DNA of 64,000 bases from an uncultured Acidimicrobiales bacterium (GTDB lineage: Bacteria > Actinomycetota > Acidimicrobiia > Acidimicrobiales > SZUA-35). The stretch lies in NCBI GenBank assembly GCA_938021675.1, contig CALIFY010000012.1, positions 19,697 through 83,696 of the forward strand, written 5' to 3'. Position numbers and translations under genes: made by a program. Numbering within the stretch: the first letter of the stretch is position 1; each line of letters opens with the position of its first letter. This document shows, in pieces, positions 26,140-48,720 of this stretch. The notes under the pieces were generated by a model. The model was not told where the DNA came from. It saw only the letters and a program-made list of their open reading frames with translations, and did not search any database.

Positions 26140-26595
26140 GTGGTTGCCCTCGTCACATCGATCCTCGTAGCTGTCGTGATGGCGGTCGGCATTTTTTGGT
26201 ACGCCGGCCGACGGCCGGTCGGAACACCGGTGACCTGGGGCGAAGCGCTCGTCGGTTCGGTGTACGTGTTCTTCTTAGCGTTCCTGGCATACGGGGTGAT
26301 CCCGCACCAGTGGCTCACCATGGCCGAGAACGAGTTCAATTTCCGGGCTGATCGGCTACTCGTCGGCCCCGGGGAAATCCTCAAGCCCATCCACCAGGGT
26401 GGTTGGGTGCCGTTCGACATCCCATACCGGGCACTGTCCGACACGGTCGCAGTTATCTTCTATGTCGTGTTTCTTGGGCTTCAGATCTGGATGTGGGCCC
26501 GATGGCAAAACCGGGATAAGCGGGCCGAAAGCAAGGCGCTGCTCGCCAGCAACCAGACAAGTTCGTTTGGTCGACCTCTGCTCAAACAGGGCTGA
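26140..26595 (+). CDS. Hypothetical 3-TM membrane protein, first gene of the Rieske/cyt b-nuo operon
   Basis: AAGGAG RBS before GTG 26140; hydrophobic segments; RRPVGTPVTWGEA and YGVIPHQWL. Confidence 0.75.
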   Translation: MVALVTSILVAVVMAVGIFWYAGRRPVGTPVTWGEALVGSVYVFFLAFLAYGVIPHQWLTMAENEFNFRADRLLVGPGEILKPIHQGGWVPFDIPYRALSDTVAVIFYVVFLGLQIWMWARWQNRDKRAESKALLASNQTSSFGRPLLKQG

Positions 26596-26613
26596 GGGGG
26601 TGCACCGATCACG

Positions 26614-27030
26614 ATGACCACCACCGATGCCAACCCGCCGCTTCCAGAATTTCGGACCGACTACCTCCTCATGGAGGTCGACGCCGACTACTTAGGGCGG
26701 GCGGTGAAGCCCAAACAGTTCATTCATATCGACCAGTCGGAATGCATCGCCTGTGAGGGCTGCGTCGACATCTGCCCGTGGAAGTGCATCCACATGCAGA
26801 CGGTCGACTGCGTCGACGAGGCCTATGGCGCGGTCAAGCCGGGCGACGACCCAAACGATGCGTTTATCTTCACCATCGACGACGACGTGTGTACCCGGTG
26901 TGCACTGTGCGTCGACCGATGCCCAACCGGGGTGATTATCCTCGGCAAGGTCAGCGAACCAAACCCATCCGGTGATCTCCACCAGCGGATGACTTCATAC
27001 GGCTACGGCTACGGCATGCGCCTCGCTTGA
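26614..27030 (+). CDS. 2x[4Fe-4S] dicluster ferredoxin
   Basis: CIACEGCVDICP and CTRCALCVDRCP; no signal peptide. Confidence 0.92.
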   Translation: MTTTDANPPLPEFRTDYLLMEVDADYLGRAVKPKQFIHIDQSECIACEGCVDICPWKCIHMQTVDCVDEAYGAVKPGDDPNDAFIFTIDDDVCTRCALCVDRCPTGVIILGKVSEPNPSGDLHQRMTSYGYGYGMRLA

Positions 27031-27079
27031 GCTGAGCTCAGCACACACAGGGACTACGGAGCAAACGGGAACTCAGCAG

Positions 27080-27871
27080 ATGGCAAAGTCGATTCAAGAC
27101 AAACCGACACTGGCAGAACGGGCGCAAGCCCAAGTGGCTCAGCTCGGCACCAACATGCAGGGCTCACAGGCCTGGAACTCGATCTTTCGACCGGGGTCGG
27201 TGTTTCGTAAGGGCTACACCGACAGCCCTCGAAATCGGTCATACGTCATCATGAACAGCGTGTTGTACCACCTTCACCCGGTGAAGGTAAAACGCCACGC
27301 GGTCAAGGTCAGTTATACGCTGTGCCTCGGTGGCCTGAGCTTCTTCTTGTTCATCCTGCTCACGGTGACCGGCATTTTCTTGATGTTCTTCTATACGCCG
27401 GAGGCCGCTCGGGCCTGGGACGACATCCAGTCGTTGCAAACCCAGATCGCTTTCGGCCTCCTGGTGAGGAACATGCACCGGTGGGGGGCGCACCTCATGG
27501 TGATCTCGGTCTTCCTTCACATGGCCCGAGTCTTTTACCATGGGGCGTACAAGGCCCCGAGGGAATTCAACTGGGTCATCGGCGTGATTCTGCTTACACT
27601 TACCTTGCTGCTGTCGTTCACCGGTTATCTGTTGCCGTGGGATCAGCTGGCGCTGTGGGCCGTGACCGTCGGTACCAACATGATGGGGTTCACCCCGGTC
27701 TTCGGTACCCAGGTCAAGTTCGTCCTCCTCGGTGGAAGCGTGATCGGTACCGACACTCTGCTTCGTTGGTACGTGTTGCATGTTCTGTTCGTTCCGTTCG
27801 TCACCGTAATCTTTATGGCTATCCACTTTTGGAGAGTCCGTAAGGACGGCGGCATCTCCGGGCCCCTCTAG
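27080..27871 (+). CDS. petB: Cytochrome b6-type (split, 4-TM) cytochrome b
   Basis: YTLCLGG (haem ci Cys), HRWGAHLMVISVFLH, FTGYLLPWDQ, LH-x14-H, C-terminal GISGPL. Confidence 0.9.
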   Translation: MAKSIQDKPTLAERAQAQVAQLGTNMQGSQAWNSIFRPGSVFRKGYTDSPRNRSYVIMNSVLYHLHPVKVKRHAVKVSYTLCLGGLSFFLFILLTVTGIFLMFFYTPEAARAWDDIQSLQTQIAFGLLVRNMHRWGAHLMVISVFLHMARVFYHGAYKAPREFNWVIGVILLTLTLLLSFTGYLLPWDQLALWAVTVGTNMMGFTPVFGTQVKFVLLGGSVIGTDTLLRWYVLHVLFVPFVTVIFMAIHFWRVRKDGGISGPL

Positions 27872-27880: not shown

Positions 27881-28669
27881 ATGACAGAGATCCCTGAGCA
27901 TCTAAGAAAACGAGCATCCGAGGCGAGGAAGAAGGCCGAGGGTTCCGCATCTGAGGCAACGCCGCCGGCATCGACCGACGCCGGTACATCCTCGGGCGGC
28001 GGGGGATCCGCGTCAAAGATCCCCGAGCATTTACTTCAGCGGTCCAAGTCGGCCAAACAACGCGATGCCGACGGAGGTGGGTCCACCGCCACCGCAGTGG
28101 CCCCGGCCGCGGCAGCGGTAGCCACCGCAACCGCCACCGCGGCGGCGCCGTTACCGACGATGACCGGTCCGGCCGGTCATACACAGCGGCTATTGACCGT
28201 CGTCAAGTCGGGTTCGATCCAAGACATCAAAGCGCAGCCACTCGACAAGGTACACACCTGGCCCCACCTGATCGTCGTCGAGTTTGGCGCCACCTTGGCG
28301 GTCACCGCCTTCCTTACCTTCTTCTCCATCTTCGTCAACGCTCCCTTGCTCCGTCTGGCCGATGTCAACGCCACACCGAACCCGTCGAAGGCACCGTGGT
28401 ACTTCCTCGGTCTTCAGGAACTGCTGACGATGTTCCACCCGATGGTCGCCGGCGTCACGATCCCTGGCATCGGCCTGTTCGCTCTCATGTTGGCGCCCTA
28501 TATCGATCGCAATCCGAGCAATAAGCCAGAGGATCGAAAGTTCGCCGTGTCGGTGTTCACCATATTCATGATGTTCTGGGCGGTATTGGTCATCATCGGC
28601 TCGTTCTTCCGAGGCCCCGGGTTCAACTTCGTGTTCCCGTGGGTCGAGGGCATCTTCTTCGACCTGTAG
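27881..28669 (+). CDS. petD: Cytochrome b6f-type subunit IV with N-terminal extension
   Basis: WPHL, NATPNPSKAPWYFLG (PEWY-equivalent), PYIDRNP..KPEDRK; three TMs. Confidence 0.85.
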   Translation: MTEIPEHLRKRASEARKKAEGSASEATPPASTDAGTSSGGGGSASKIPEHLLQRSKSAKQRDADGGGSTATAVAPAAAAVATATATAAAPLPTMTGPAGHTQRLLTVVKSGSIQDIKAQPLDKVHTWPHLIVVEFGATLAVTAFLTFFSIFVNAPLLRLADVNATPNPSKAPWYFLGLQELLTMFHPMVAGVTIPGIGLFALMLAPYIDRNPSNKPEDRKFAVSVFTIFMMFWAVLVIIGSFFRGPGFNFVFPWVEGIFFDL

Positions 28670-29642: not shown

Positions 29643-31288
29643 TGCTGGCTACATATGTTTTTGCCGCCGATTTCAGGGCAATCGGCCTAACGGTCGCGCT
29701 GATCGTCTTTATTGGCTTTGCCGCCGTCTTTGTCTGGAACATGGTTCGGGCCCGGCCCGAATTGGGTTCGGAGATCGAGCTGGCGGCCAACCGGAAGGAA
29801 TATCTTTCCGACGAAGAGCTCGAAGGTGAAAAGCTTGATCGTTCCCTGAGCTTCGCTCTCGTGCTGCTCACCTTACTGGCGGTCACGCTGCCGTTTTATT
29901 GGATCGCAGAACCGGGTCGTCAAGAGGGTGCTGCCGATGCCTACAACCTCTCGTTCGAGAGCCGTGGCGAAGGTAGCTATCTCGAAGGCGCGCAGTGCGT
30001 CAACTGTCATGCCGGTGGTGGCGTCGGCGGTACGGCCCCATATGTACTGCAAGACGTCGACGGTCAGTTTATTGCGAACGCATCCTGGCAAGCGCCAGCA
30101 CTCAATAACGTGTTGCTGCGCTATTCCGAGGACGAAGTCCGTTACATCCTTAACTTCGGTCGCCCCGGTTCCCCCATGGCAGCATGGGGCACCCCCGGTG
30201 GTGGACCTCTCACCACCCAGCAGGTCGACAACATCGTGGTGTACCTGCGAACCCTGCAGCAGCAGAGTTTGGATGTCACCGAGATCGCCCTGGCCGGCGA
30301 TGTCGATCCACAAGACCCCGAGAGTGTCGAAGCTCAGGAGGCGGCCGACGAGGTACAGGAAGCCGTCGTCGCCGAGGTTGAGCGTTCATTGGCCGATGGT
30401 GAGTACGAAACCATCGGTGAGGCCGTGTTCAACCTGGGGCTCCAATCCGGTTTTGCCGGTGGCGCTTTTTCTTGTGGACGATGCCATACCGCAGGCTGGT
30501 CGCTTGGTCTCGATGCCGTTCCCGAGATCCTCGATGAGGGGCACGCCGGTTGTGGTGGCGGCAACCCGTCGGGAATCGGATTCAACCTTTGCGGAGGTTC
30601 GGTCAAAGATCGATTCCCCGATGATTCATGGCTCCGACCGGATGGCACATGGTATGCCCTAGAGCAGTCGGTCGAAGATGGTTTCACCCGACCGAGCGAA
30701 GGTAACCCCGTCGGTTACGACGGCACGTATATCGAGGCGATGGACGGAACCCGAGTCGATCTCGACGACAGCGGAAACCCGATCACCGACGACGGCGAGC
30801 CGTACATCATCCTTCCCGGGGCCGAAACGGCGCCGAGTGCTGCCGCCGATGGCGACGACGACGAGACCGACGAAGAGGCGGATGCGACGCCGACGAGCAC
30901 CGAAGATCGCGATGGCGACTTGGCCGAATGCGGCTTCGTCTCCGGCTTGTGGGAGCCCGAAGGTGGCTCGGTCTACGCCTTCGATCCCTCGGTCGAGATC
31001 GCCGAGGATGAGAACGGTGCCTTCATCGATCCCGATCCACTGGAGTTGGCCGATGCCGGAGCGGACGCCATCGTCCTTCCGGACGGGCAGATCATCGCCG
31101 ACTGCAACATCATCGAGATGCCCCCTCGTACCAGCCAGACCCACTACGCGTTCGTCTATGACGGAGCCGATGCCGGTGAAGGGTATGGCCGAGGCGGATT
31201 GAGTGCTGCCGGGATGATGCCTGGCTTCGGTAGGATTCTGCCGCCTGAGTACATTCAGGCCGTTGTCGACTACGAGCGAGGGCTGTGA
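29642..31288 (+). CDS. Membrane-anchored dihaem cytochrome c with large acidic insertions
   Basis: Two N-terminal TMs, CVNCH and CGRCH, candidate axial Met in SPMAAWG and GMMPGFG. Confidence 0.85.
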   Translation: MLATYVFAADFRAIGLTVALIVFIGFAAVFVWNMVRARPELGSEIELAANRKEYLSDEELEGEKLDRSLSFALVLLTLLAVTLPFYWIAEPGRQEGAADAYNLSFESRGEGSYLEGAQCVNCHAGGGVGGTAPYVLQDVDGQFIANASWQAPALNNVLLRYSEDEVRYILNFGRPGSPMAAWGTPGGGPLTTQQVDNIVVYLRTLQQQSLDVTEIALAGDVDPQDPESVEAQEAADEVQEAVVAEVERSLADGEYETIGEAVFNLGLQSGFAGGAFSCGRCHTAGWSLGLDAVPEILDEGHAGCGGGNPSGIGFNLCGGSVKDRFPDDSWLRPDGTWYALEQSVEDGFTRPSEGNPVGYDGTYIEAMDGTRVDLDDSGNPITDDGEPYIILPGAETAPSAAADGDDDETDEEADATPTSTEDRDGDLAECGFVSGLWEPEGGSVYAFDPSVEIAEDENGAFIDPDPLELADAGADAIVLPDGQIIADCNIIEMPPRTSQTHYAFVYDGADAGEGYGRGGLSAAGMMPGFGRILPPEYIQAVVDYERGL

Positions 31289-32211
31289 TGCAAATACTGG
31301 CGACGGCCGTGCTCGGTCTTATCGACGGAATCGGATTCGATCCGTTTTTCCGTGGCTTCCTCAGCGTCATGGTCGGCGTGGTGGTGTTGATCGGAGGAAC
31401 GTACCTCCTGATCGCCACCAACACCGGCGCTCGCTCCGGCATGATGATCGCCTGCGGCGGGCTCTTCGGGTGGATGTTCCTGATGGGCGTCTTTTGGACG
31501 GTCTACGGCATCGGTTGGGTCGGTGCCGGCCCAACATGGGAACTGGTTGAGATAAACGTCGACGACGTCGAAGACACCGACGATGGTCTGCTGTTCTCCG
31601 AGATCGACGTGGCCCAAGAGCTTCACGCCGTCGATGTGTCGGTTGAAGCCGATGACCCGGACGAGGCGCAGATCCTCGCCCTCGAACGGTCGAACGAAGT
31701 TGACCTTGGGGAGTGGCGGTATCTTCCGACCTCGGACCCGATCCGAGGCGAAGCACAAGCATCGGCCGATGCGTTCCTCATCGAGGAAGGCGTGTTCGAG
31801 AGCGGCGGGTTTCTTCCGTTGCAGTTCGGTGGGTTCACCTCGGGTGGGAAACCGGTATTGACCGACGACCCGAGCATGTTGGATCGAGTCGTTCATTTCT
31901 TCGAAGAGACGTTCCTCAACCCGTCCCATCCCGAGGAACGGATCGTGATCCAAGCCCGGGAAATCATTAACAAACCAGTGCTTCCCGGCGAGCCACCACC
32001 GGTGGCAGAAGTCGACCCTGAACAGCCGTTGGTATCGGTGATCATGGTGCGCGACCGGGGCGGCCCGCTTCCAGCTCTCATTAGTGGCCTGCGATTTACC
32101 CCTCTGGTGTTCACCGTGGCCAACGGCGCGTTGTTCGCTGCCTTCGCCCTGTCCCTGCATTATCGGGATCGACGTGAAGACGAGATCCGGGCTGCCGTAG
32201 CGGCGGGATAG
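31288..32211 (+). CDS. Hypothetical membrane protein (2 N-terminal TMs, acidic exterior domain, C-terminal TM)
   Basis: Coupled to the cyt c stop (TGATG); GGTYLLIATNTGARSG and YGIGW segments. Confidence 0.8.
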   Translation: MQILATAVLGLIDGIGFDPFFRGFLSVMVGVVVLIGGTYLLIATNTGARSGMMIACGGLFGWMFLMGVFWTVYGIGWVGAGPTWELVEINVDDVEDTDDGLLFSEIDVAQELHAVDVSVEADDPDEAQILALERSNEVDLGEWRYLPTSDPIRGEAQASADAFLIEEGVFESGGFLPLQFGGFTSGGKPVLTDDPSMLDRVVHFFEETFLNPSHPEERIVIQAREIINKPVLPGEPPPVAEVDPEQPLVSVIMVRDRGGPLPALISGLRFTPLVFTVANGALFAAFALSLHYRDRREDEIRAAVAAG

Positions 32212-32266
32212 GGTTTTGGCGGTAGTAGACCCGATTTTGATTCAAGATCAGCAGAGGAGGACATAA

Positions 32267-32848
32267 ATGGCTCAGTACCTACCTGTTCTGGTCCTATTGG
32301 TCCTGGCTGCGCTCTTCGCGGCCTTGAGCTTTATGGCCTCCAAGCTGCTGGCTCCCCGGAACCCGACGGTTGAGAAGTACGCGCCGTACGAGTGCGGGAT
32401 TATCCCAGGTCGAGAACCACCGGAACGTTTTCCGGTTCGCTTTTACCTCATCGCCATGCTGTTCGTGATCTTCGACATAGAGATCGTGTTCCTCTATCCG
32501 TGGGCAGTGGCAAGCGATCGGCTCGGTCTCGCCGGACTCTTGGCCATTCTGCTCTTCTCGGCGCTGGTGTTCGAGTCGTTCGTCTACCTCATTTCTAAAG
32601 GGGCGCTCGATTGGGGTCCGCTCCAAATTTCGCAACGCCAGGATGTGATGCGAACCGCCGAACGAACGACGGCAACCACCATTCGTCGGGTCGGGCTTGA
32701 CGGACGACTTGAAGAGATTCGTAGCAATCGGTTTGACGACGGGCCAGAGCGGGAATTGGTCAGCAGTGAGTTAGTTGACAGCGAGTCGGCTGGCAGCGAG
32801 TTGGTTGGGACCGAATCGGTTGGTACCGGCCACAAGGGAGCAGCCTGA
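32267..32848 (+). CDS. nuoA: NADH-quinone oxidoreductase subunit A (C-terminal extension)
   Basis: [25 protein letters not shown]. Confidence 0.95.
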
Positions 32849-32850
32849 GA

Positions 32851-33441
32851 ATGGGCGTCATTCACAACGTGCAGGCCTCGGGTGTCGAGGGTCTCGATCA
32901 CAACTTCATCACCGCACCGCTTGAGAAACTGGTGAATTGGTCTCGAGCCCGTTCGTCATGGCCGGCAACGTTCGGTCTTGCCTGTTGCGCCATTGAGATG
33001 ATGGCCACCGGCGGCTCGCACTACGATCTCGCACGCCTCGGCATGGAAGTGTTTCGGGCGTCACCCCGACAGGCCGACGTGATGATCGTCGCCGGTCGAG
33101 TCAGTCAGAAGATGGCCCCCGTTCTCCGTCAGATCTATGACCAAATGATGGAACCGAAGTGGGTTATCTCCATGGGGGTTTGCGCCTCTAGCGGCGGAAT
33201 GTTCAACAACTATGCCATCGTCCAGGGTGTCGATCAGATCGTTCCGGTCGATGTATACGCCCCCGGTTGCCCACCCGGCCCTGAAACGCTGCTCCACGCC
33301 ATCACCACTCTCCATACCCAGATCGAGACCGGCGAGTTGCTTCGCCGCAGAAGCGAGACCGGTGCTGGAGCCAACCTGATGATCGAGCAGTTGGACGGGC
33401 AAGGAAAATCCACCATGGTCACGCTTGGTTCGAAGACGTGA
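32851..33441 (+). CDS. nuoB: NADH-quinone oxidoreductase subunit B
   Basis: [33 protein letters not shown]. Confidence 0.97.
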
Positions 33442-34034
33442 GCAAGGACGTCACACCGGTGGAGAAAACAGAAGATGAGTTGGACGGAGCGCCGGAATCA
33501 CCTGACGATGAGTCGCCCGACGCTTCCAGCACGTCGGCCTACGGTTGTTCGGTCTCCTACTCGCGGGGCCAGCGCGTCATCCATCCCGACCGGGGCACCT
33601 GGGCTGAGGTAGCGGCTGCGTTGCTGGCCGACGGTTGGAACATGTGTGTCGACGTGACAGCGGTCGACTACAGCACATACGACGGGTCCCGAGACTTGCC
33701 AGATGGCGTGGCGCCCGAACGGTTCGAACTGATCGCCTCGTTCATTTCCCACACCACTCGCGATCGGTTGAGAGCCCGAGTCCAAATTCCGGCCGACGAT
33801 CCCGTCGTCTCCTCGCTTTACCATCTGTATCCCGGCACCGACTATCTCGAGCGTGAAGTGTTCGACCTCATGGGTATCGCCTTCGACGGGCATCCCGACC
33901 TCTCACGGATTCTCATGCCGGAGAACTGGGACGGTCATCCGCTGCGGAAGGATTACGCCGTAGGCGCCATCCCGGTGCAGTTCAAAGCGACCGCCGCCGC
34001 CTCGACCGGGACCGGGCCGGAGGCACAGCGATGA
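33438..34034 (+). CDS. nuoC: NADH-quinone oxidoreductase subunit C
   Basis: [29 protein letters not shown]. Confidence 0.95.
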
Positions 34035-35371
34035 CCGCCACCGAATCCGAAACGCCCACCCAATCTGAAACACGGCCTGACGCCGACACTCGCTCCGATG
34101 CATCACCCGGGCAGCTCGATCGGTTACCCCGGCGAGGTGCGGTACTGCGAATGTCGGAGGTCCGGGCCGCCGAGGAAGTAGCGAGCGAACCGCTCGGCGA
34201 CGAAAACGACCAAACCATGTTGATGAACATGGGCCCGTCGCATCCGTCAACCCACGGTGTGCTCCGGCTCATGCTCGAACTCGATGGTGAGACCATCGTC
34301 CGGTCAAAGCCGGTGATCGGGTATCTCCACACCGGCATGGAGAAGACCGGCGAGCAGCTGACCTACCTACAGGGTCCGACGAACGTCACCCGGATGGACT
34401 ATGCCGCCCCGCTATTCAATGAGCTTGTGTTCTCATTGGCCGTCGAGGAACTGGTCGGTATCGAAATCCCGGAGCGAGCTACCTGGATCCGAATGTTGAT
34501 GACCGAGCTCAACCGGATCTCGTCCCATCTGCTGTTCATGGCCACCAACGGGATGGACCTCGGCGCGGTGTCGATGATGATCTACGGCTGGCGAGAGCGC
34601 GAGCAGGTGCTTCGGTTCTTCCAGAAGGTCACCGGTCTTCGAATGAACCACAACTACATCCGGCCCGGCGGCGTTGCCGCCGACCTACCGGACGGTTGGC
34701 GTGACGACGTCCTGACGCTGATGGAGATGTTGCCGCCCCGGCTGGAAGAGTACGACACCTTGATGACCGGTCAGCCGATCTGGCGTGAGCGTCTCCAAGG
34801 CGTTGGTGTTCTCACCCCCGAAGAGGCGTTGGCCCTGTCGGCCACCGGACCGGTGCTCCGCTCGACCGGTGTCGCCTGGGATCTTCGTCGGGATATGCCG
34901 TATCTGGCGTTCGACGAGGTCGACTTCGACGTGGTCGTCGGCTCGTACGGTGATTCGTTCGACCGGTACGCCATCCGTCTGAACGAGATCCGAGAGTCGA
35001 TTCGGATCGTCAACCAAATTCTCGACAAGATGCCGCCCGGAGACTATCGGGCCCAAGATGCCAAGGTCACTCCGCCACCCCGAGCACGGATCGATGAGTC
35101 GATGGAGGCTCTGATCCATCACTTCAAGATCTTCACCGAGGGTTTCAAGGTGCCCGAGGGCGAGGTCTACGTGGCGGTCGAATCGCCCCGGGGCGAACTC
35201 GGCTGTTACCTGGTGTCCGATGGCGGGCCGAAGCCGTATCGCATGCACATTCGGGGCCCGAGTTTCGTCAACCTCCAGACCATGCCCCACATGATGGCCG
35301 ACAGCTTGATCGCCGATGCGGTCGCTGTTATCTCCTCGGTCGATCCGATTCTCGGAGAGGTCGACCGGTGA
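34031..35371 (+). CDS. nuoD: NADH-quinone oxidoreductase subunit D
   Basis: NMGPSHPSTHGVLRL, GYLHTGMEK, ESPRGELG, GEVDR. Confidence 0.97.
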   Translation: MTATESETPTQSETRPDADTRSDASPGQLDRLPRRGAVLRMSEVRAAEEVASEPLGDENDQTMLMNMGPSHPSTHGVLRLMLELDGETIVRSKPVIGYLHTGMEKTGEQLTYLQGPTNVTRMDYAAPLFNELVFSLAVEELVGIEIPERATWIRMLMTELNRISSHLLFMATNGMDLGAVSMMIYGWREREQVLRFFQKVTGLRMNHNYIRPGGVAADLPDGWRDDVLTLMEMLPPRLEEYDTLMTGQPIWRERLQGVGVLTPEEALALSATGPVLRSTGVAWDLRRDMPYLAFDEVDFDVVVGSYGDSFDRYAIRLNEIRESIRIVNQILDKMPPGDYRAQDAKVTPPPRARIDESMEALIHHFKIFTEGFKVPEGEVYVAVESPRGELGCYLVSDGGPKPYRMHIRGPSFVNLQTMPHMMADSLIADAVAVISSVDPILGEVDR

Positions 35372-35441
35372 TCGCGGTGTTCGTTGAGTTCGCTGTTGAT
35401 TCACCCGTCGGTGGGATGATTTCGGGAAGGGTAGATCGCTA

Positions 35442-36074: not shown

Positions 36075-36077
36075 TCA

Positions 36078-40057: not shown

Positions 40058-41373
40058 CGCTCGCCGTTGGAGACCCGTATCTGGCTGACGGCACCGTCGA
40101 TTTTGGTGACGTACTTCTCGCTGCCGGCAAGGCCGTCGTTGCCTTTGCTGTACTGCTCGTCGCCGTCATGCTCATGGTGTGGTTTGAGCGGAAGGTCGTC
40201 GGCCGCCTTCAGAATCGTCTTGGTCCGACTGTCGCTGGTCCCTTTGGATTGTTCCAAACACTGGCCGACGGCATCAAGTTGTTCTTCAAAGAGGACATCA
40301 TCCCGTCGCGGGCTGACCGATTCGTCTTCCAACTTGCACCGTACCTCTCGTTGGTGCCGGCCTTCCTCACCTTCACCATCATTCCCATCGCCGGAGACTT
40401 CAATGGCGAGAACGATGGTCGGGTCACGATGTTCGGTCGGGAGACGTTTCTTCAAGTAGCGGACCTGCCGGTCGGGATCTTGTTCTTCTTGGCGATGAGT
40501 TCGTTGGCGGTGTACGGGATCATGTTGGCCGGTTGGTCATCTGGATCGAAGTACCCGCTGCTCGGTTCGATTCGGGCGTCGGCCCAAGCCATCTCCTACG
40601 AGGCTGCCCTTGGCCTCTCGTTGGCGTCGGTCCTGCTGGTTTCCGGGTCGTTGAGCACGAACGAGATCGTCAACTCGCAAGCCGGCAGCGGGTTTGGTGG
40701 GTTCGTCCCCAATTGGAATCTCATCGTGACCGGATTCGTGCCCTTCGTCGTGTTTCTGATCGCAGGAACGGCCGAGTTGAACCGCCCCCCGTTTGATCTC
40801 GTGGAAGCTGAGCAGGAAATCGTCGGTGGCTACCACACCGAATACAGCTCCATTCGATTCGCCATGTTCTTTCTGGCCGAATTCATGAACACCGTGACGA
40901 TGGCGGCAATCATCGTCACCCTCTTCTTTGGTGGCCCGGCCGGACCGACGTTCGGCTCGATCATCCCTGGTTGGTTGTGGGGATTCATCTGGTTCTTCTC
41001 CAAACTGCTGGTCTTTCTCTTCACGTTCGTGTGGTTCCGAGCCACCCTGCCTCGGTTGCGTTATGACCAGCTCATGGATCTCGGTTGGAAGTTGCTTATA
41101 CCGCTTTCCCTGGGTTGGCTCCTCCTCCTTGCTGCCATCCGGCTGGTCCGGAACGGTCGCATAGATTTGCTCGACGACGGCGGCTTGGTGGCCGAAACGG
41201 CGCTGGTTATCTCGGTGTCCGTGGGGATTTTGCTACTCGGTGCCTTCTTGTTGTCCATGGCCGCTACTGCGGCCCGGACCGAACGGTTGGCTTCTCGTGG
41301 ACTTACCGCTGTTGCGGTAAGCGATCCTGTCGTGGCCTCTTCCAGTCGGGCTGACGGGAAGGAAGTGGAATAG
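40054..41373 (+). CDS. nuoH: NADH-quinone oxidoreductase subunit H
   Basis: ERKVVGRLQNRLGP, ADGIKLFFKE, AELNRPPFDLVEAEQE, PRLRYDQLM. Confidence 0.96.
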   Translation: MTLAVGDPYLADGTVDFGDVLLAAGKAVVAFAVLLVAVMLMVWFERKVVGRLQNRLGPTVAGPFGLFQTLADGIKLFFKEDIIPSRADRFVFQLAPYLSLVPAFLTFTIIPIAGDFNGENDGRVTMFGRETFLQVADLPVGILFFLAMSSLAVYGIMLAGWSSGSKYPLLGSIRASAQAISYEAALGLSLASVLLVSGSLSTNEIVNSQAGSGFGGFVPNWNLIVTGFVPFVVFLIAGTAELNRPPFDLVEAEQEIVGGYHTEYSSIRFAMFFLAEFMNTVTMAAIIVTLFFGGPAGPTFGSIIPGWLWGFIWFFSKLLVFLFTFVWFRATLPRLRYDQLMDLGWKLLIPLSLGWLLLLAAIRLVRNGRIDLLDDGGLVAETALVISVSVGILLLGAFLLSMAATAARTERLASRGLTAVAVSDPVVASSSRADGKEVE

Positions 41374-42023
41374 TGGGATACTTAGAGGGTTTCGCTGTCA
41401 CCCTACGCAAAGTGGCAGAAGGGGTCACCACTCGCAGTTATCGCGGCGGCAAAGGCGGCAAAAGCGATATCAAGGCGCCAAAGCCAGAACGGCTACACGG
41501 TCGTCACGTCCTGAATCGCTATGAGGACGGCATGGAGAAGTGCATCGGATGTGAGTTGTGTGCCGGTGTATGCCCAGCCAACTGCATCTACGTGCGAGGG
41601 GCCGAGAATCCGCCGGAGGATCCGCAATCGCCCGGTGAACGATTCGGCTATGTGTACGAGATTAACTACCTTCGATGCATTCATTGTGATCTTTGCGTCG
41701 AGGCTTGCCCAACCGAAGCCATCACCGAAACGAAGCTATTCGAATTCTCGTTCACCAACCGGGACGACGCTGTCTATACCAAAGATGAACTACTCGTTGA
41801 CGACGATGGTCTTCCCCAACAACTTCCTTGGGAAGATTGGCGACCCGGCGAGGATGAGCACACTTCGGGGTGGATGCGGGCCACATCGCCTTCCGGTAAG
41901 GCCGCATATGAAGGTGTTGTCGGCTGGTCCGGTGAACTCGGATACGGCGTCCGAAACCCAGAGGAAGGTCAGAGCGTAGAGCTCGGAACCGACCAGCCCG
42001 GGGAGGAATCGGCCGATGGTTGA
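41373..42023 (+). CDS. nuoI: NADH-quinone oxidoreductase subunit I
   Basis: CIGCELCAGVCP and CIHCDLCVEACP. Confidence 0.96.
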   Translation: MGYLEGFAVTLRKVAEGVTTRSYRGGKGGKSDIKAPKPERLHGRHVLNRYEDGMEKCIGCELCAGVCPANCIYVRGAENPPEDPQSPGERFGYVYEINYLRCIHCDLCVEACPTEAITETKLFEFSFTNRDDAVYTKDELLVDDDGLPQQLPWEDWRPGEDEHTSGWMRATSPSGKAAYEGVVGWSGELGYGVRNPEEGQSVELGTDQPGEESADG

Positions 42024-42615
42024 CGCTGTCGTATTCGCCGTCTCGGCTGCCATCATTCTCGGCGGGGCGTTCGGCGTGATCCTGAGTAGCCATCCGGTGC
42101 GGGCCGCTCTGTCACTGATCGCGTCGTTCTTCGGCGTGGCGGTGCTGTTCGTATTGCAAGAAGCCCATTTCTTGGCTCTGGTTCAAGTGGTCGTATACGG
42201 CGGGGCAGTGGTGGTTCTGTTCTTGTTCGTGATCATGCTTCTCGGCGTCGACCGATCCGAAGACTTACGTTTCGAACCTCTGGCCGGTCAACGGGTGGCG
42301 GCCGGGTTGGTTGGGTTGATGGTGTTGGCGTTGATTCTCGGGGGCTTGTTCCTCTCAGGACCCGGCGGCGACGAAGGTGCGGTGGCCCTCAGCGGCCAGC
42401 CGACCCAGAACGGTACGTTGGAACTTGAGCCGAACAACCCCGATGCCGACGACGACGTCGATCGGTTGGCTGACGATCTGTTCACCCGTAACCTGCTGGC
42501 CTTTGAGGCCACGGCGTTATTGTTGACGATCGCCACGGTCGGCGCGGTGGTGTTGGTCCGAAACCGAGGTGCCGAAGACCTGGTGGTTGACGAACCAGGT
42601 TCGGCGACGCACTAG
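42016..42615 (+). CDS. nuoJ: NADH-quinone oxidoreductase subunit J
   Basis: QVVVYGGAVVVLFLFVIML; operon position. Confidence 0.94.
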   Translation: MVDAVVFAVSAAIILGGAFGVILSSHPVRAALSLIASFFGVAVLFVLQEAHFLALVQVVVYGGAVVVLFLFVIMLLGVDRSEDLRFEPLAGQRVAAGLVGLMVLALILGGLFLSGPGGDEGAVALSGQPTQNGTLELEPNNPDADDDVDRLADDLFTRNLLAFEATALLLTIATVGAVVLVRNRGAEDLVVDEPGSATH

Positions 42616-42667
42616 GTAGACGCGGAAAGCGACAGGAGAGGGCAATGGAGAGAGGAGCGCGCAGACA

Positions 42668-42973
42668 ATGGAAGTAACCGAGACGTGGTACCTCGTGCTC
42701 AGTGCACTGCTCTTCAGTATGGGCCTAGTCGGCCTACTGGTGCGGCGGAACCCACTGATCATGTTCATGTGCGTCGAGCTGATGCTCAACGCGGTCAATA
42801 TCACCTTCGTCGCCTTCGCTGGCGCCCTCGACGACATCGCCGGCCGGACCGCGGTGTTCTTCGTCCTGGTGGTTGCCGCGGCCGAAGTGGTCGTCGGGCT
42901 GTCGCTCGTGGTGGCATTGCTCCGCCGCCGTCCGTCCGTATCGGTCGACGATCTCACTGCATTGAAGGGCTGA
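42668..42973 (+). CDS. nuoK: NADH-quinone oxidoreductase subunit K
   Basis: RRNPLIMFMCVELMLNA, AAAEVVVGL. Confidence 0.96.
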   Translation: MEVTETWYLVLSALLFSMGLVGLLVRRNPLIMFMCVELMLNAVNITFVAFAGALDDIAGRTAVFFVLVVAAAEVVVGLSLVVALLRRRPSVSVDDLTALKG

Positions 42974-42977
42974 GTCC

Positions 42978-45356
42978 ATGATCGATCTCGCCTGGCTCAT
43001 CCCGGCGTTTCCTCTTGCCGGGTTTGCGCTACTGGTGCTCTTTGGCCGCCGCCTCGGCGAACCGGGCGCAGGATGGGTGGCAACGGTGGCCAGCGCCGCG
43101 TCGTTTGCCACCACGGTGGCGGTCTTCGCCGATCTCGTCGGTATGGAAGGCGAGGAGCGTTTCCGAGTTCAAACACTGTTCACTTGGATCGCCGCCGGCT
43201 CGTTCGAGGTGGACGCCGGGCTTCTGATCGACCCGCTGTCGATCACGATGGCATTGTTCATCACCGGGGTCGGCACACTCATTCATCTGTACTCGATCGG
43301 GTACATGCACGGAGACCCGAAGTTCTCCAAGTTCTTCATCTACCTCAACCTCTTCGTTGCGTCGATGTTGTTACTGATCCTCGGCGACAACCTGGCGCTT
43401 ACCTTCCTTGGTTGGGAAGGGGTCGGGGCCTGTTCGTACTTCCTTATCTCGTTCTGGTTCTCCGATGAGGCAAACGCATCGGCCGGCAAGAAAGCGTTCG
43501 TCACCAACCGGATCGGTGACTTCGGTTTCATGGTGGCGACGTTCGTGCTGTTTACCAGCCTCGGTTCGATCAACTACGACGACATTTTGACCAGGGCCGA
43601 CGAGCTCAGCACCCAGACCGCCACCATCGTCGTCGTATTGTTCATGCTGGCGGCCGCCGGCAAATCGGCTCAGCTTCCGTTGTATGTGTGGTTGCCCGAC
43701 GCCATGGCCGGTCCAACTCCGGTGTCTGCTCTCATCCACGCCGCAACGATGGTCACCTCCGGCGTCTTTCTTCTCACCCGGTTGAACCCGGTCCTGGCCG
43801 AGGCCGAGTTGTGGTCGCGTGGCTTGATCGCATGGATCGGGGCCTTGACCGCGTTGTTCGCTGCCACTATCGCCGTGGCCCAGACCGACATCAAAAAGGT
43901 GTTGGCATACTCCACGGTCTCCCAGCTCGGTTATCTGTTTCTAGCGGTCGGCGTCGGTGGTTTCGTGCCTGCCATCTTTCACATGGTGACCCATGCATTC
44001 TTTAAGGCGCTGCTGTTCCTCGGTTCTGGTTCGGTCATCCATGGGCTACACGATGAGCAGGACATGCGCCGGATGGGTGGGCTTCGTAGCCTCATGCCAG
44101 TCACGGCCTTCACGTTCATTATCGGCTGGTTGGCCATTGCCGGCGTTCCACCGTTCAGCGGGTTCTGGTCGAAGGATGAGATTCTGTTGTTCGCCTGGAA
44201 TGCCGATGGGATTGGCGGCAAAGGACTCTGGGCCGTGGGGCTGGTTACCGCCATGCTCACCGCGTTCTACATGACCCGCCAGGTGATCCTTACGTTCTTT
44301 GGACGAACCAGGTTCTTTGACCCGACAGCGGCAGAGATCGACGCTGCAGCGTCTGGCCGCGTCGGCGAAGTGGAAGCCGAGATGCTGGCCGTGACCGAGG
44401 CTCGGATGGCGGCCGTTGCCGCGTTGGAGAAGGCGGCGACCGATGTGGTGAAACGATCGGACGCCGTCAGCAAGGCAAAGACCGTGCTGGTTGAAGCGAC
44501 CGCGGCGGTCGGCGCATCTACCGACGGCGCCGAGGGGCACGACAAGCTGGTCAAGGCATTCGACCGGGCGGTAAAGGCAGTGAATAAGAGCGAAGCGGCC
44601 GTAGTCAAGGCGGAGAATGCCGCTGCGGCCGCCGAGGTCGAAGTCGACCAGCTGACGGCTCAGGTCACGGCGACCGAGGCCCGACTGTCGGATGTGACCG
44701 ATGAGGTCGGGCGAGCACCGAGACCGGCGGCCCACGTCACCGCAGTCACCGAAGCGACCGACGCCGGCCCGCTGGTCGAGTATCTCCCCGAGAGCTATCA
44801 CCGGCGACAAGATCAGCACCCTCATGAGTCGCCGGCCACGATGACCTTGCCATTGGTCGTGCTGGCGGTACTCGCCGCCGTCGCCGGCGGGCTCAACTTG
44901 CCGTTCACGAAAGACCTCCATTTTCTTGAGCATTGGCTCGAACCGTCGCTGTTCGGTAACGAGGCCAAGGTGGCGGCCACCGCAGGAACGAAATGGATTC
45001 TGGGCGTAGTCGCAGTGGCCGTCGGAGCTGTCGCCATCGTCGCAGCGTTCGGTGTGTACCTCCGAGGTCGTGCGGACCCGGCACAAATCGAGCGGCGGGT
45101 GCTGGCCGACGGCTGGTATGTAGACGAAAGCTATGCCGGGTTCATGGGGGGACCGGGGCGCCGACTGTTCGAAGGTCTCTCGTGGTTTGACCGCACCATC
45201 GTCGACGGCATCGTCGGCGGGGTTGCCCGCTCGGTGACCGTCGCCGGCCAGTCTTTGCGGGTCTTGCAGCCCGGATTCGTACGAAGCTATGCCCTCGGTA
45301 TCGGACTGGGATCGGTCTTGGTCATGGCGTGGTTCGTCGGGAGGCTCTTCCAATGA
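42978..45356 (+). CDS. nuoL: NADH-quinone oxidoreductase subunit L (with ~165-aa helical insertion)
   Basis: GWEGVG, KSAQLPLYVWLPDAMAGPTPVSALIHAATMV, KKVLAYSTVSQLG, HAFFKALLF. Confidence 0.96.
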   Translation: MIDLAWLIPAFPLAGFALLVLFGRRLGEPGAGWVATVASAASFATTVAVFADLVGMEGEERFRVQTLFTWIAAGSFEVDAGLLIDPLSITMALFITGVGTLIHLYSIGYMHGDPKFSKFFIYLNLFVASMLLLILGDNLALTFLGWEGVGACSYFLISFWFSDEANASAGKKAFVTNRIGDFGFMVATFVLFTSLGSINYDDILTRADELSTQTATIVVVLFMLAAAGKSAQLPLYVWLPDAMAGPTPVSALIHAATMVTSGVFLLTRLNPVLAEAELWSRGLIAWIGALTALFAATIAVAQTDIKKVLAYSTVSQLGYLFLAVGVGGFVPAIFHMVTHAFFKALLFLGSGSVIHGLHDEQDMRRMGGLRSLMPVTAFTFIIGWLAIAGVPPFSGFWSKDEILLFAWNADGIGGKGLWAVGLVTAMLTAFYMTRQVILTFFGRTRFFDPTAAEIDAAASGRVGEVEAEMLAVTEARMAAVAALEKAATDVVKRSDAVSKAKTVLVEATAAVGASTDGAEGHDKLVKAFDRAVKAVNKSEAAVVKAENAAAAAEVEVDQLTAQVTATEARLSDVTDEVGRAPRPAAHVTAVTEATDAGPLVEYLPESYHRRQDQHPHESPATMTLPLVVLAVLAAVAGGLNLPFTKDLHFLEHWLEPSLFGNEAKVAATAGTKWILGVVAVAVGAVAIVAAFGVYLRGRADPAQIERRVLADGWYVDESYAGFMGGPGRRLFEGLSWFDRTIVDGIVGGVARSVTVAGQSLRVLQPGFVRSYALGIGLGSVLVMAWFVGRLFQ

Positions 45357-47074
45357 GTACCACAACGGTGTTGGCCGCCGAGGCCGCAACCTTTCCTGTC
45401 CTTCCCGCTCTGATCGTGATCCCGGTGGTAACCGCGGTCATCATCGGGCTGTTGCCCGCCTCCCGGGCTGACTATTCCAAATTGGCGGCTCTGATCGGGT
45501 CGTCGATCGCCGGAATTCTCACGGTGTACGTCTTGTGGAATTTCGACGCCGCAGATGGTGGCCTCCAGTTCGTCAGCCAACAGAGCTGGGTCGGCGACCT
45601 CGGCTTGAGTTGGTTTCTCGCCGTCGACGGGATCTCGCTGTTCCTCGTGGTTCTGACCGGTTTGTTATTTCCTGTCGCCATCGTTACCACCGAGCCCCAC
45701 CACGACCCCAAACCGTATTACCTGTGGTTGATGTTGCTCATGGCTGGTTCGTTTGGTGCGTTCCTGGCCCTCGACCTACTCCTCTTCTTCTTGTTCTTCG
45801 AGATCGTGCTGGTCCCGATGTATTTCTTGATCGGTGGATGGGGGCACGGCAACCGCGTGTATGCGGCCATGAAGTTCTTCCTTTACACGATGGCGGCCTC
45901 GGCATTGATGCTGGTAGGCATCGTGGCGCTCGTCTTCCTGGCCCGAGACGACACCGGCGGTCCGACGTTCAATGTCGTCACGCTGGCGAGCCAGCATCGC
46001 CTTTCCAGCACCGCGGCACTGCTGGTGTTTGCGTCGTTCGCCTTGGCCTTCGCGGTCAAAGTCCCGGTCTTTCCGGTCCACACCTGGCTGCCGGATGCTC
46101 ACACCGAGGCCCCGACTGCCGGTTCGGTCATCTTGGCTGGCGTCATGCTGAAGCTCGGGACCTACGGCTTGATCCGATTCGGGCTGTTCTTGTTCCCGGC
46201 CACCGTTCGGGATTTGGCCCCGGTCTTTCTCACCCTCGGCGTGATCGGCATCGTGTATGGGGCGGCGGTCGCCACGATGCAGCGCGACTTGAAAAGGTTG
46301 GTCGCGTACTCTTCGGTCGCCCATATGGGGTTTGTGGTACTGGGGATTTTCGCCATCAACAGCCAGGGCCTGACCGGCTCGGTGGTACAGATGATCAATC
46401 ACGGCATCTCTACCGGCGCGTTGTTCATCTTGGTCGGATGGGTGTATGAGCGACGTCACACCCGTCAGATAGAAGCGCTTGGCGGCTTGCAATCGGCTGC
46501 GCCGGTCATGGCCGGAGTCTTCACCTTGGTCATGTTGTCGAGCATCGGGCTTCCCGGACTCAACGGCTTTGTCGGTGAGTTCCTCATCCTGCTCGGAACG
46601 TTCTCCGCCGCGCCATGGTGGGCGGTGGTGGCCGCGACCGGGGTGATTCTGGCCGCCCTCTATCTCCTGTGGGCCTACCAGCGAAGTTTCCATGGACCGG
46701 CCGAGGGTGACAACGCAACGATGGAAGACCTTCGGCTTACCGAACTGTTTGGCATCGCACCACTGTTGATCTTGATCGTGTTCCTCGGGGTGTATCCCAA
46801 ACCGATGATCGATCGGATCGAGCCAACGGTTGACGTGCTGATCGAGCATGTCGAGGATCGCGTGCCGGATTTTGCAGAGGATGAGCCCGACCGGTTGCGT
46901 CGAGCCGGCACCGACGGGTTGATCGATGCTGCCAACGAAGCTCACAGCGAGACCGAAGAGCACGGCGGAACCGAAGATCACGGCGAAACCGAAACCGAAG
47001 CCGAAGATCATGGCGAGACCGATGCCAGCAGCGAGACCGAGGCCGGCGGGACTGAAGCCGGAGAGGGAGAGTGA
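45353..47074 (+). CDS. nuoM: NADH-quinone oxidoreductase subunit M
   Basis: KVPVFPVHTWLPDAHTEAPT, LKLGTYG, AYSSVAHMG, GLPGLNGFVGE; ATG 45353 overlaps the nuoL stop. Confidence 0.96.
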   Translation: MSTTTVLAAEAATFPVLPALIVIPVVTAVIIGLLPASRADYSKLAALIGSSIAGILTVYVLWNFDAADGGLQFVSQQSWVGDLGLSWFLAVDGISLFLVVLTGLLFPVAIVTTEPHHDPKPYYLWLMLLMAGSFGAFLALDLLLFFLFFEIVLVPMYFLIGGWGHGNRVYAAMKFFLYTMAASALMLVGIVALVFLARDDTGGPTFNVVTLASQHRLSSTAALLVFASFALAFAVKVPVFPVHTWLPDAHTEAPTAGSVILAGVMLKLGTYGLIRFGLFLFPATVRDLAPVFLTLGVIGIVYGAAVATMQRDLKRLVAYSSVAHMGFVVLGIFAINSQGLTGSVVQMINHGISTGALFILVGWVYERRHTRQIEALGGLQSAAPVMAGVFTLVMLSSIGLPGLNGFVGEFLILLGTFSAAPWWAVVAATGVILAALYLLWAYQRSFHGPAEGDNATMEDLRLTELFGIAPLLILIVFLGVYPKPMIDRIEPTVDVLIEHVEDRVPDFAEDEPDRLRRAGTDGLIDAANEAHSETEEHGGTEDHGETETEAEDHGETDASSETEAGGTEAGEGE

Positions 47075-48720
47075 TGGTGTTGGCCACCACCGATTCTGGC
47101 GACGTCGTCGTTGGCCAACCGGGCCTGGTAGAGCTCCCGCACATCGACTGGGTGCTGTTGGCGCCGTTTTTGGTGATGGCGTTAGGCGGCATCCTTTTGA
47201 TTACCGCCACGTCGGTCGTTCCGATTCTGCGGAGCCGTGGGTTCCCGGCCGCGTTTACGGTCTTGACCGCAGCCCTTTCCGCCGCGTTTCTCGTACCGGT
47301 CTGGGATCGGATCGATGGCGGGGCACAATCGGTGGCCGGTGGGGCGCTGGCGATAGACGGATTTTCGGTCTTCGTGTGGGGCGTGATCGCCACCTCGGTG
47401 TTTCTTGTTGCCGCATTGCTCGATGCGTATCTCCGCCGAGAAGGATTTGATGGTCCGGAGTGGTACGTCCTGATGCTGATGTCGGCCGCTGGCGGCATGT
47501 TGCTGGCCGCATCGCAGGAGCTCATTCTTTCGTTTCTCGGTCTCGAGATTCTGTCGATTGCGGTCTACGTGCTGGCCGCGCTACACCTCCGCCGGTCGGA
47601 TTCTCAAGAGGCGGCGTTCAAGTACTTCATCTTGGGGGCGTTGTCGTCGGCGCTGTTCCTCTACGGCATCGCGTTGGTTTACGGCGCAACCGGTTCGACG
47701 TCGTTGGCTGGAATCGCCGGCGCACGAGCCGACAACCCGGCGGGGCTCAACCCGCTTGAGAACTCCTCGCTGGTGCTGGTCGGGCTGGCGTTGATCGTCA
47801 TCGGGTTCGCCTTCAAGGTGTCGGCGGTGCCATTCCACATGTGGACCCCGGACGTCTACGAAGGCTCGCCGACGCCGGTTGTTGCATTCATGGCATCGGG
47901 GGTCAAGGTCGCCGGATTCGCCGGAATGGCTCGGGTGCTGTGGCAAGGCTTCGGGTTCTATTGGGAGGATTGGCGGCCGATCGTCATCGTGTTGGCGGGC
48001 CTGAGTTTCGTGGTGGGATCGTTCCTCGCCCTGGCTCAAACGAACGTCAAACGGATGCTGGCTTTTTCCTCGATCAACCACGCTGGCTTCATGCTGGCGG
48101 CCCTTCAGGCCATTCCGTCAGATGAGTTTGTGTCGACCGCTCTGGCCGGCCAAGCCTTGCTCTTCTACCTATTGGCGTACACGGTGATGGTGGTCGGCAC
48201 GTTTGGAGTGATGACCCTGGTCGGGCGTCGCGGCGATGACGCTCATTCGCTCGACGACTACCGCGGTTTGGCCAAACGGCGTCCGGTGCTCGCTGGGTTG
48301 ATGGCGGTGCTGTTGTTCGGACAAGCCGGTATCCCCTTTACCTCTGGGTTCTTTGCCAAGTTCCGGGTGATCGCCGCCACGGTCGAGAGCGGCGCCTACG
48401 TGTTGGCTGGCCTTGCGATGCTGGCGGCGGTTGTGGCCGCGGTGCTCTACTTGCGGATCGTGGTGTCGATGTACCTCACCGGTGAGCCCGTGGTGGCCCA
48501 CGCCGCCACCGATGAGGTCGCGGTCGATGATGACGTGACCGGCCACGGTGAAAGTGACGCCGCCAACCTCGACGATGGCGACGGGCCGATCGTCCTTCCA
48601 AAGGCGGCGATGGCGTCGATCATCATCGCCGCGTTCGTAACCGTCCTTCTCGGCCTGCTGCCCGGATTGCTCGGCGGAGTATTGACCGAGGCCGCTGACG
48701 CGCTGGCCGCTCTGAAGTAG
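47074..48720 (+). CDS. nuoN: NADH-quinone oxidoreductase subunit N
   Basis: EAAFKYFILG, FKVSAVPFHMWTPDVYEG, KRMLAFSSI, GIPFTSGFFAK. Confidence 0.96.
   Translation: MVLATTDSGDVVVGQPGLVELPHIDWVLLAPFLVMALGGILLITATSVVPILRSRGFPAAFTVLTAALSAAFLVPVWDRIDGGAQSVAGGALAIDGFSVFVWGVIATSVFLVAALLDAYLRREGFDGPEWYVLMLMSAAGGMLLAASQELILSFLGLEILSIAVYVLAALHLRRSDSQEAAFKYFILGALSSALFLYGIALVYGATGSTSLAGIAGARADNPAGLNPLENSSLVLVGLALIVIGFAFKVSAVPFHMWTPDVYEGSPTPVVAFMASGVKVAGFAGMARVLWQGFGFYWEDWRPIVIVLAGLSFVVGSFLALAQTNVKRMLAFSSINHAGFMLAALQAIPSDEFVSTALAGQALLFYLLAYTVMVVGTFGVMTLVGRRGDDAHSLDDYRGLAKRRPVLAGLMAVLLFGQAGIPFTSGFFAKFRVIAATVESGAYVLAGLAMLAAVVAAVLYLRIVVSMYLTGEPVVAHAATDEVAVDDDVTGHGESDAANLDDGDGPIVLPKAAMASIIIAAFVTVLLGLLPGLLGGVLTEAADALAALK

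Follow-up and report, generated by a model that had tools for sequence, protein, structure and literature searches.

The 64,000-nucleotide stretch of DNA analysed here (the window) comes from an uncultured Acidimicrobiales bacterium. Between positions 26140 and 48720 it holds a run of 21 genes, all on the plus strand according to the open reading frame (ORF) list and translations. The first seven genes (26140–32211, the module) encode a Rieske/cytochrome b complex and a small ferredoxin, and the others encode complex I. With a probability of about 60%, we read the module as the only quinol:cytochrome c oxidoreductase of the host, in which the ferredoxin would be an n-side subunit that wires haems bN and ci to the cytoplasm. 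Such an enzyme would combine cytochrome b6, bearing the haem-ci cysteine, with a subunit IV of three helices, a Rieske protein and a dihaem cytochrome c bound to the membrane. Two membrane proteins specific to the lineage (memA and memB) and the cytoplasmic 2x[4Fe-4S] ferredoxin would complete it. The cytochrome b clade is already known; its ferredoxin-bearing form has been little studied.

The module and its type of complex

The host assembly has 99 contigs and is 95% complete. It yielded one PF00033 match, the b6 of the gene run, and no second cytochrome b was found beside any of the six Rieske-domain matches in the genome. Since this is the only cytochrome b found, the module is the house complex III and not an extra complex. 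An earlier, sequence-only reading of this DNA had seen a different complex beside the usual one, and that view has to be given up. An aa3-type haem-copper oxidase and cytochrome bd are encoded elsewhere in the genome. As the sole complex III of an aerobe, the module must also be able to run an ordinary Q cycle. The region is organised as follows.

25691..26139, plus strand: upstream region, ~450 bp with no convincing gene, probably holds the promoter of the run
26140..26595, plus strand: memA, small membrane protein of ~151 residues with three hydrophobic stretches, no known family
26614..27030, plus strand: 2x[4Fe-4S] ferredoxin, 138 residues, Fer4 families, two CxxCxxCxxxCP boxes
27080..27871, plus strand: cytochrome b6, 263 residues, four-helix split type, PF00033 (156 bits)
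27881..28669, plus strand: subunit IV, 262 residues, three transmembrane helices, PF00032
28755..29642, plus strand: Rieske [2Fe-2S] protein, PF00355
29642..31288, plus strand: membrane-anchored dihaem cytochrome c, 548 residues with an acidic insert, PF13442 and PF00034, motifs CVNCH and CGRCH
31285..32211, plus strand: memB, membrane protein of 308 residues, no known family
32212..32266, plus strand: spacer before nuoA, 55 bp, with the ribosome-binding site GAGGAGG in its sequence
32267..48720, plus strand: nuoA-N, complex I with all 14 subunits, the NADH module (nuoE, F, G) among them, and a Pfam family for each subunit

Cytochrome b and subunit IV are separate adjacent genes, each with its own family match. 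The split b6/subunit IV complex proposed from the sequence was thus confirmed, together with a haem-ci cysteine, and so was the statement that the complex is not QcrCAB. The NCBIfam model QcrB_actin (NF050120) gave a score of 120 on b6 against a cut-off of 500, QcrA_actin (NF050121) gave 21 against 275, and none of the module proteins had an NCBIfam match to the QcrC family. The b6 protein passed the ExtP equivalog (304 bits, cut-off 290) and scored 215 with the b6 model (cut-off 325). Its closest solved relatives are the cyanobacterial and plant b6 proteins (E 1.4e-46), with 162 alignment bits for solved b6 versus ~94 for mycobacterial QcrB. The p-side haem subunit is a 548-residue dihaem class-I-type cytochrome c and not a cytochrome f, nor is the cytochrome b an unsplit protein of ~540 residues like the QcrB of actinobacterial QcrCAB.

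Inspection of the motifs gave a consistent picture. LCLGG of b6, which has the CxGG form of the haem-ci motif, aligns to the yCLGG/Cys35 column of solved b6. Its cysteine marks the putative haem ci site, where attachment of the haem is predicted. The four ligands of haems bP and bN (H133, H147, H234, and H249) are invariant in alignments A2 and A4 and sit within the block aligned to solved b6. That block begins only at residue 77; b6 has an N-terminal extension with YHLHP, and no counterpart of the HLHP stretch was found in solved b6f proteins. Subunit IV carries APWY as its Qo motif (KAPWYF) and reached 49.5 bits with the ExtQ model, below the cut-off of 150. A long cytoplasmic extension precedes its first helix (27881–28260, ~110 extra residues in alignment A3). 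This extension contains two conserved IPEHL(L/R)xR motifs, an Ala-rich linker that varies in length and, just before the helix, an invariant GHTQRLLTVVKSGSIQD, and it is a candidate docking element. In the Rieske protein, a further helix at the N-terminus and a twin-arginine-like anchor (RRQFL) accompany the boxes CPHLGC...CPCHGSQY. Ser and Tyr in the CPCHGSxY box mark higher-potential Rieske proteins.

The same motifs recurred in the ORFs recovered from 80 related loci: LCLGG and YHLHP in 75/75 each, and APWY in 68/68. Two CxxCH motifs were present in 61 of the 62 cytochrome c ORFs, and all 65 Rieske ORFs examined had CxHxGC and a CxCHGSxY-type box (CPCHGT in one case). By these motifs and scores, the module encodes a b6-type (b6c) Rieske/cytochrome b complex, probably of the APWY or subfamily G clade. 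Outside Actinomycetota, the comparison covered Planctomycetota, whose b6 homologues are up to 63% identical. A b6 tree of 40 rows, built without PetB, Bacillus or QcrB references, did not resolve the deep nodes. Its rows were hand-picked and comprised nine of the 80 Acidimicrobiales loci and all other-class and Planctomycetota loci fetched.

Conservation of the ferredoxin and the link to complex I

The ferredoxin has neither a signal peptide nor a transmembrane helix, and conserved extensions flank its cluster-binding part at both ends. Over 32 Acidimicrobiales loci it is 74–93% identical, and 77 of its 138 columns are invariant, some of them in each of the two termini outside the cluster-binding part. 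Among the module proteins it ranks second in conservation within the order (72–93% identity versus 42–78% for Rieske).

A scan with the ferredoxin confirmed at least 579 loci, of which the 80 best were used. The order memA-fdx-b6-suIV-Rieske-cytochrome c-memB-nuoA-B-C-D is retained in 80/80 of them as far as the contigs reach; an order found in all 80 loci is not due to chance. In 79 loci memA lies 5' of the ferredoxin gene, and the 80th starts too late. Among the loci that reach far enough, memB follows the cytochrome c gene in 62/62 and nuoA follows memB in 60/60, the other 20 ending earlier. All but four of the 80 labels are Acidimicrobiia-lineage or broader Actinomycetota/Actinomycetes; the four are 'bacterium' (twice), 'Candidatus Hopanoidivoransaceae', and 'Phycisphaeraceae'. 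A 3.4-kb contig (L069) of a metagenome-assembled genome labelled Phycisphaeraceae carries an Acidimicrobiales-type ferredoxin (73% identity) and b6 (85%), and is probably mis-binned.

As these loci had been picked by ferredoxin similarity, a genome search served as the independent test. The sample comprised 41 genomes from the host genus and 16 other families of the order, and the ferredoxin gene lay directly upstream of b6 in 35 of them. Four incomplete genomes (70–89%) had only fragments at contig ends. The remaining two (92% and 95% complete) had neither gene and encoded a long QcrB-like cytochrome b instead.

The search was extended to an even draw of 401 Actinomycetota genomes at a threshold of E ≤ 1e-15, where the ferredoxin was found in 157 and cytochrome b in 265. 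In ~108/108 non-Acidimicrobiia genomes the ferredoxin gene lies on the same strand, at most ~210 nt upstream of b6. This count was made by eye over the genomes with both matches listed, leaving out nine further genomes without a listed b6; it becomes 96/96 without 12 genomes flagged unpublished. In the other classes the ferredoxin is 35–52% identical over residues ~10–115, and b6 67–78%. The sequence-only reading had made itself depend on a ferredoxin gene kept beside b6 in relatives, and it passed this preset test in the genus and order as well as in the other classes. Among 17 fetched loci, ferredoxin is encoded directly upstream of b6 in 16, the exception being L117. Subunit IV and Rieske come next in 15/15 of those whose contig continues (L112 ends inside b6), and a cytochrome c match follows in 13 of the fetched loci.

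The direct join to nuo is a feature of the order Acidimicrobiales only. Thirteen other-class loci extend past the module, and their fetched stretches showed no nuo gene; all of these loci but L117 keep the ferredoxin. The ferredoxin therefore travels with b6, and not with nuo. In other orders of the class, nuoA-D lie ~8 kb downstream (L118, L119), or upstream on the opposite strand (L120). In the window, the spacer before nuoA has a ribosome-binding site, and a promoter and terminator scan, which is a weak one, reported no terminator-like site in it. This makes co-transcription likely, and the module and nuoA-N are probably transcribed together in the order.

The gaps within the run, read 5' to 3', are +18, +49, +9, +85, -1, -4, and +55 for the first seven junctions and +2, -4, -4, +70, +3, -4, -4, -1, -8, +52, +4, -28, and -4 for the remaining thirteen. 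The first of the two successive -4 junctions after +3 is ATGA at 37499. The largest gap is 85 bp and 10 of the 20 junctions overlap. Coordinates and Pfam/NCBIfam scans thus agree with the 21 co-oriented genes, gaps below 90 bp and many overlaps reported from the sequence. The run likely begins with memA at GTG 26140, which has an AAGGAG box in front. Its promoter likely lies within 25691..26139. The scan reported no sigma-70-like match there; it gave one promoter-like site, which is intragenic, and its terminator-like sites are all intragenic as well. On the 3' side, the run is bounded by a convergent Dus gene (48724–50001, minus strand). Two long ORFs on the 5' side (23680–24732, plus strand; 24818–25690, minus strand), candidate genes at most, belong to no Pfam family. 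For memA, Pfam gave a sub-threshold Yip1 match and no other family, and memB matched neither Pfam nor NCBIfam. Atlas searches with both proteins returned unnamed Actinomycetota hypothetical-protein clusters only. NuoA has 193 residues, with a tail of ~75 residues past the Pfam domain (32615–32848) that ends in short repeats.

A second nuo-like operon occupies 54531–64000 on the plus strand and runs off the window. It contains nuoA, B, C, D, H, I, J, K, L, and M, and there is no nuoE/F/G between nuoD (ends 57457) and nuoH (starts 57465). Its predicted product is a complex I-like enzyme without the NADH module. Enzymes of this kind take electrons from ferredoxin-type donors in other organisms. 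An NDH-2 gene (53007–54374, minus strand) lies just upstream of this operon. In same-genus genomes, the NuoI-like gene lies remote from the bc module.

Relatives of the ferredoxin, proposed mechanism and alternatives

To place the ferredoxin, we carried out an exhaustive phmmer search of 1.84 billion representative proteins, which gave 604 matches at E ≤ 1e-3 and 33 at E ≤ 1e-30. The best 150 matches include three proteins of 595–615 residues that combine GltD-like Fer4_20 and Pyr_redox_2 domains with a C-terminal two-cluster domain. The C-terminal domain of P0336 aligns to ferredoxin residues 3–112 (38% identity over 118 residues, pairwise E 8e-19). By these alignments, the nearest non-orthologous relatives of the ferredoxin are iron–sulfur (Fe-S) domains at the C-terminus of GltD-like NAD(P) oxidoreductases, which are subunits of Rieske/cytochrome b complexes of the anaerobic ammonium oxidation (anammox) type. 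Bound Fe-S subunits (FwdF, NdhI/NuoI, PscB, and PsaC) head its sequence and fold matches. The fold search with the ferredoxin model returned a generic two-cluster ferredoxin fold (TM ~0.4) and was not discriminating. Public records name the protein generically, as 'ferredoxin', 'NuoI-like', 'PreA subunit' or 'DUF362'.

The gene position points in the same direction. Locus L103 (Planctomycetota) has the order Rieske / flavoprotein / b6 / subunit IV-like / multihaem c / HAO-like, which is the order published for Kuste4569-4574 (PMC12954380; this and the other papers are cited for the sections drawn on here). The large flavoprotein subunit is encoded directly upstream of b6 in both L103 and L124. 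Since GltD-like Fe-S domains are encoded at the equal position, directly 5' of b6, we read the ferredoxin as a cytoplasmic-side subunit. In the host cluster, the 138-residue Fe-S protein stands alone, and no GltD-like subunit for flavin adenine dinucleotide (FAD) and NAD(P) was found.

Second Rieske/cytochrome b clusters were seen in same-genus genomes, at L124 (G018:C4:3730000-3746000) and L123 (G007). L124 has the order cytochrome c / 671-residue GltD-like protein / b6 / 189-residue subunit IV / Rieske / cytochrome c. The GltD-like protein is of the NAD(P)-FAD type with a C-terminal 2x[4Fe-4S] domain, and the cluster adjoins a COX1 gene and a gene for a 759-residue cytochrome b-Fer4-cytochrome c fusion protein. 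The L124-type b6 forms a very long branch in the b6 tree. No cluster of this type was found in the host genome, given its one PF00033 match.

For the anammox complex, an earlier complexome study cited in PMC12954380 reports that all subunits co-migrate, and the cytoplasmic Fe-S flavoprotein is proposed to make NAD(P)H. In the AlphaFold3 models of that paper, four [4/3Fe-4S] clusters lead from haems bN/cN to FAD, by way of a haem that had not been expected, held by His43 from each of the two cytochrome b copies. Arg247 of cytochrome b and the basic residue 511 of the flavoprotein are placed near that haem (PMC12954380). The b6 of L103 has His43 (LHLHP) and Arg247 (WRVRKDGG). Both columns are invariant (13/13, alignment A4) and correspond to H64 and R254 of the host b6. 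Lys 511 of the L103 flavoprotein aligns without a gap to K32 of the ferredoxin.

With these results in hand, we propose the following mechanism. Menaquinol would be oxidised at the APWY site. The first electron would pass through Rieske and the dihaem cytochrome c to the aa3 oxidase, and the second would cross the membrane via haems bP and bN to haem ci. We infer that the ferredoxin binds as a fixed n-side subunit, the stand-alone counterpart of the anammox-type C-terminal Fe-S domain, and exchanges electrons with bN/ci. It would thus act as an iron–sulfur wire from these haems to a cytoplasmic partner, and the wire may pass an extra bis-His haem held by the HLHP histidine of two b6 N-termini. 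The ferredoxin could then serve as an exit or entry for electrons, as an alternative to the re-reduction of menaquinone in an ordinary Q cycle.

A bolder version, which we consider doubtful, makes the bound ferredoxin a low-potential port, the first in a natural b6-type complex, open to flow in either direction, ancestral, and phylum-wide in the non-Actinomycetes Actinomycetota. In one direction, menaquinol oxidation would be bifurcated between the Rieske/cytochrome c/aa3 branch and the ferredoxin, so that an aerobe would gain reduced ferredoxin from quinol. The nuoEFG-less complex I-like enzyme encoded 6 kb downstream could use it. In the other direction, reduced ferredoxin would deliver electrons to haem ci and from there to the quinone. 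A ferredoxin:quinone reductase activity has long been sought and is debated for b6f in cyclic electron flow.

Several observations weigh against the ferredoxin as a wiring subunit. An ordinary Q cycle must be possible in this host, and it needs no ferredoxin. At L117 (G203:C1:2716000-2735999), a locus of another class, memA-like, b6, subunit IV, Rieske, and cytochrome c genes are present without the ferredoxin gene, and a ferredoxin match is absent in four of the eight sampled b6-bearing genomes of the family of G203. The ferredoxin is therefore dispensable in some lineages. Its C-terminal tail GYGYGMRL is conserved only within the class. The identity to the large flavoprotein subunits is 28–38%, partly owing to common cluster-binding motifs, and the ferredoxin model is moderately confident, with a mean predicted local distance difference test (pLDDT) score of 67. 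The comparison with the published residues assumes that the numbering of L103 equals that of the published anammox protein, and the extra haem proposed for the host b6 rests on the published AlphaFold3 models. The binding of the ferredoxin and the electron flow through it are deduced from sequence. The L117 locus was also found to have CPCHASAY in place of CPCHGSxY as its Rieske box.

Two further lines of evidence carried little weight. A joint prediction of b6, subunit IV, and ferredoxin, each given as an alignment, scored 0.06 against a mark of 0.32 and informs neither way. Six joined ferredoxin-b6 gene calls were read. P0122, P0138, P0149, and P0163 look like frameshift artefacts, and P0155 and P0128 look like clean in-frame fusions; all are singletons and hence weak evidence.

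The ferredoxin could instead be no subunit at all and only share its expression with the complex, either as a soluble electron carrier or as a factor for maturation, such as the insertion of haem ci or Fe-S clusters. It has no membrane anchor, its loss in G203 leaves the rest of the module intact, and its annotation is generic, all of which would suit such a role. The invariance of more than half of its columns, non-cluster termini included, is, however, more than a free ferredoxin needs, and its position directly upstream of b6 is fixed across classes. Moreover, the proteins that carry its closest relatives as domains are subunits reported to co-migrate with the Rieske/cytochrome b complex to which they belong (PMC12954380). 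We hold this alternative to be rather unlikely. A physical complex I–III supercomplex was suggested as possible by the sequence-only reading; in the fuller form of this idea, the ferredoxin would link both enzymes. The unbroken gene run, the spacer free of terminator-like sites and the constant memB-nuoA junction within Acidimicrobiales speak for it, but the join is a matter of gene order at the level of the order and provides no evidence for such an assembly. The other-class loci past the module show no nuo while the ferredoxin persists in all but one, the other orders of the class have nuoA-D at a distance or on the other strand, and the host complex I has its own full NuoE/F/G/I set. The supercomplex appears improbable.

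Least of all do we expect the cluster to be an auxiliary Rieske/cytochrome b complex beside a canonical QcrCAB. Many organisms of the APWY clade do have several cytochrome b genes (PMC4122944), and some other genomes of the host genus gave two to three cytochrome b matches. The host, in contrast, has its single PF00033 match, and none of its six Rieske matches neighbours a second cytochrome b, which makes this explanation highly improbable.

Comparison with known systems

Research on photosynthesis and respiration has long debated the role of haem ci and the possibility of a direct electron transfer from ferredoxin to a b6-type complex. Anammox bacteria, in which a related arrangement occurs, are hard to grow. 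The module would be a minimal version, with the Fe-S module alone, that serves as the sole complex III in a widespread aerobic group within Actinomycetota. Should a carrier in culture be confirmed, its subunit composition, its cluster potentials and the direction of electron flow would become directly measurable. The variant could thus show how b6-type complexes trade electrons with the cytoplasm. In addition, the textbook equation of actinobacterial complex III with QcrCAB is corrected, and a generically named ferredoxin gene gains a proposed role.

The sequence-only reading had put the system forward as a candidate for an undescribed one, which needs correcting in two respects. The cytochrome b clade has been published with a member from Acidimicrobiia (PMC4122944), and a cytoplasmic Fe-S partner on the n-side has been proposed for the anammox relatives (PMC12954380). 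Kao & Hunte 2014 (PMC4122944) defined the APWY clade and stated that none of its complexes had yet been characterised; of the five actinobacterial split forms that they list, one is from an Acidimicrobidae strain, Ilumatobacter coccineum. Subfamily G and its association with large NAD(P)/Fe-S oxidoreductases were described by Dibrova et al. 2017 (PMC5600118). The host complex shares the split cytochrome b, CxGG and the APWY Qo motif with this clade, but has LCLGG where WCMGG is usual (PMC4122944). In the sections drawn on, the text of the APWY-clade papers is silent on a small ferredoxin gene and on a linkage to nuo. Our literature search met no paper in which an actinobacterial complex of the b6 type is accompanied by a gene for a small ferredoxin, although this ferredoxin may appear in the tables of PMC4122944 and the operon figures of PMC5600118.

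With the b6f complex of cyanobacteria and chloroplasts, the host shares the Cys35 column, the haem histidines and the C-terminal RK-GISGPL. It differs in having a dihaem cytochrome c instead of cytochrome f, APWY instead of PEWY, ~47 extra N-terminal residues on b6 and ~110 on subunit IV, and a ferredoxin in the operon. QcrCAB occurs in the same phylum and has the same role, from menaquinol through a dihaem cytochrome c to the aa3 oxidase. Unlike QcrCAB, the host complex has a split cytochrome b, a haem-ci cysteine and a ferredoxin, and the QcrCAB family models failed on it by a wide margin. The ExtO/ExtP/ExtQ proteins of Geobacter resemble it in that b6 passes the ExtP equivalog, whereas ExtQ matched weakly. 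The ext cluster (PMC5877670) encodes multihaem cytochromes and a porin, and no ferredoxin. We considered it as a precedent for the ferredoxin and ruled it out, since ExtM is a 12-haem cytochrome.

The anammox complexes Kuste4569-4574 and Kustd1480-1485 (Kartal et al. 2013 and de Almeida et al. 2016, as cited in PMC12954380 and PMC5600118) offer a further parallel. Both they and the host complex have a four-helix b6-like cytochrome b with CxGG, a separate subunit IV-like protein, a Rieske box CPCHGSxY, and, in the gene position just before b6, an Fe-S protein. Also kept are the two residues named in the published model, the histidine of HLHP and the arginine of WRVRK. In contrast to the anammox complexes, the partner in the host is only the 138-residue ferredoxin, without a FAD/NAD(P) module. 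By our reading of the sequence, subunit IV has three hydrophobic stretches, compared with five helices in the anammox protein (PMC12954380). The p-side cytochrome carries two haems and not six to eight, and there is no HAO-like protein. Finally, the host differs from the anammox bacteria in being aerobic and having an aa3 oxidase, and the module is its only complex III.

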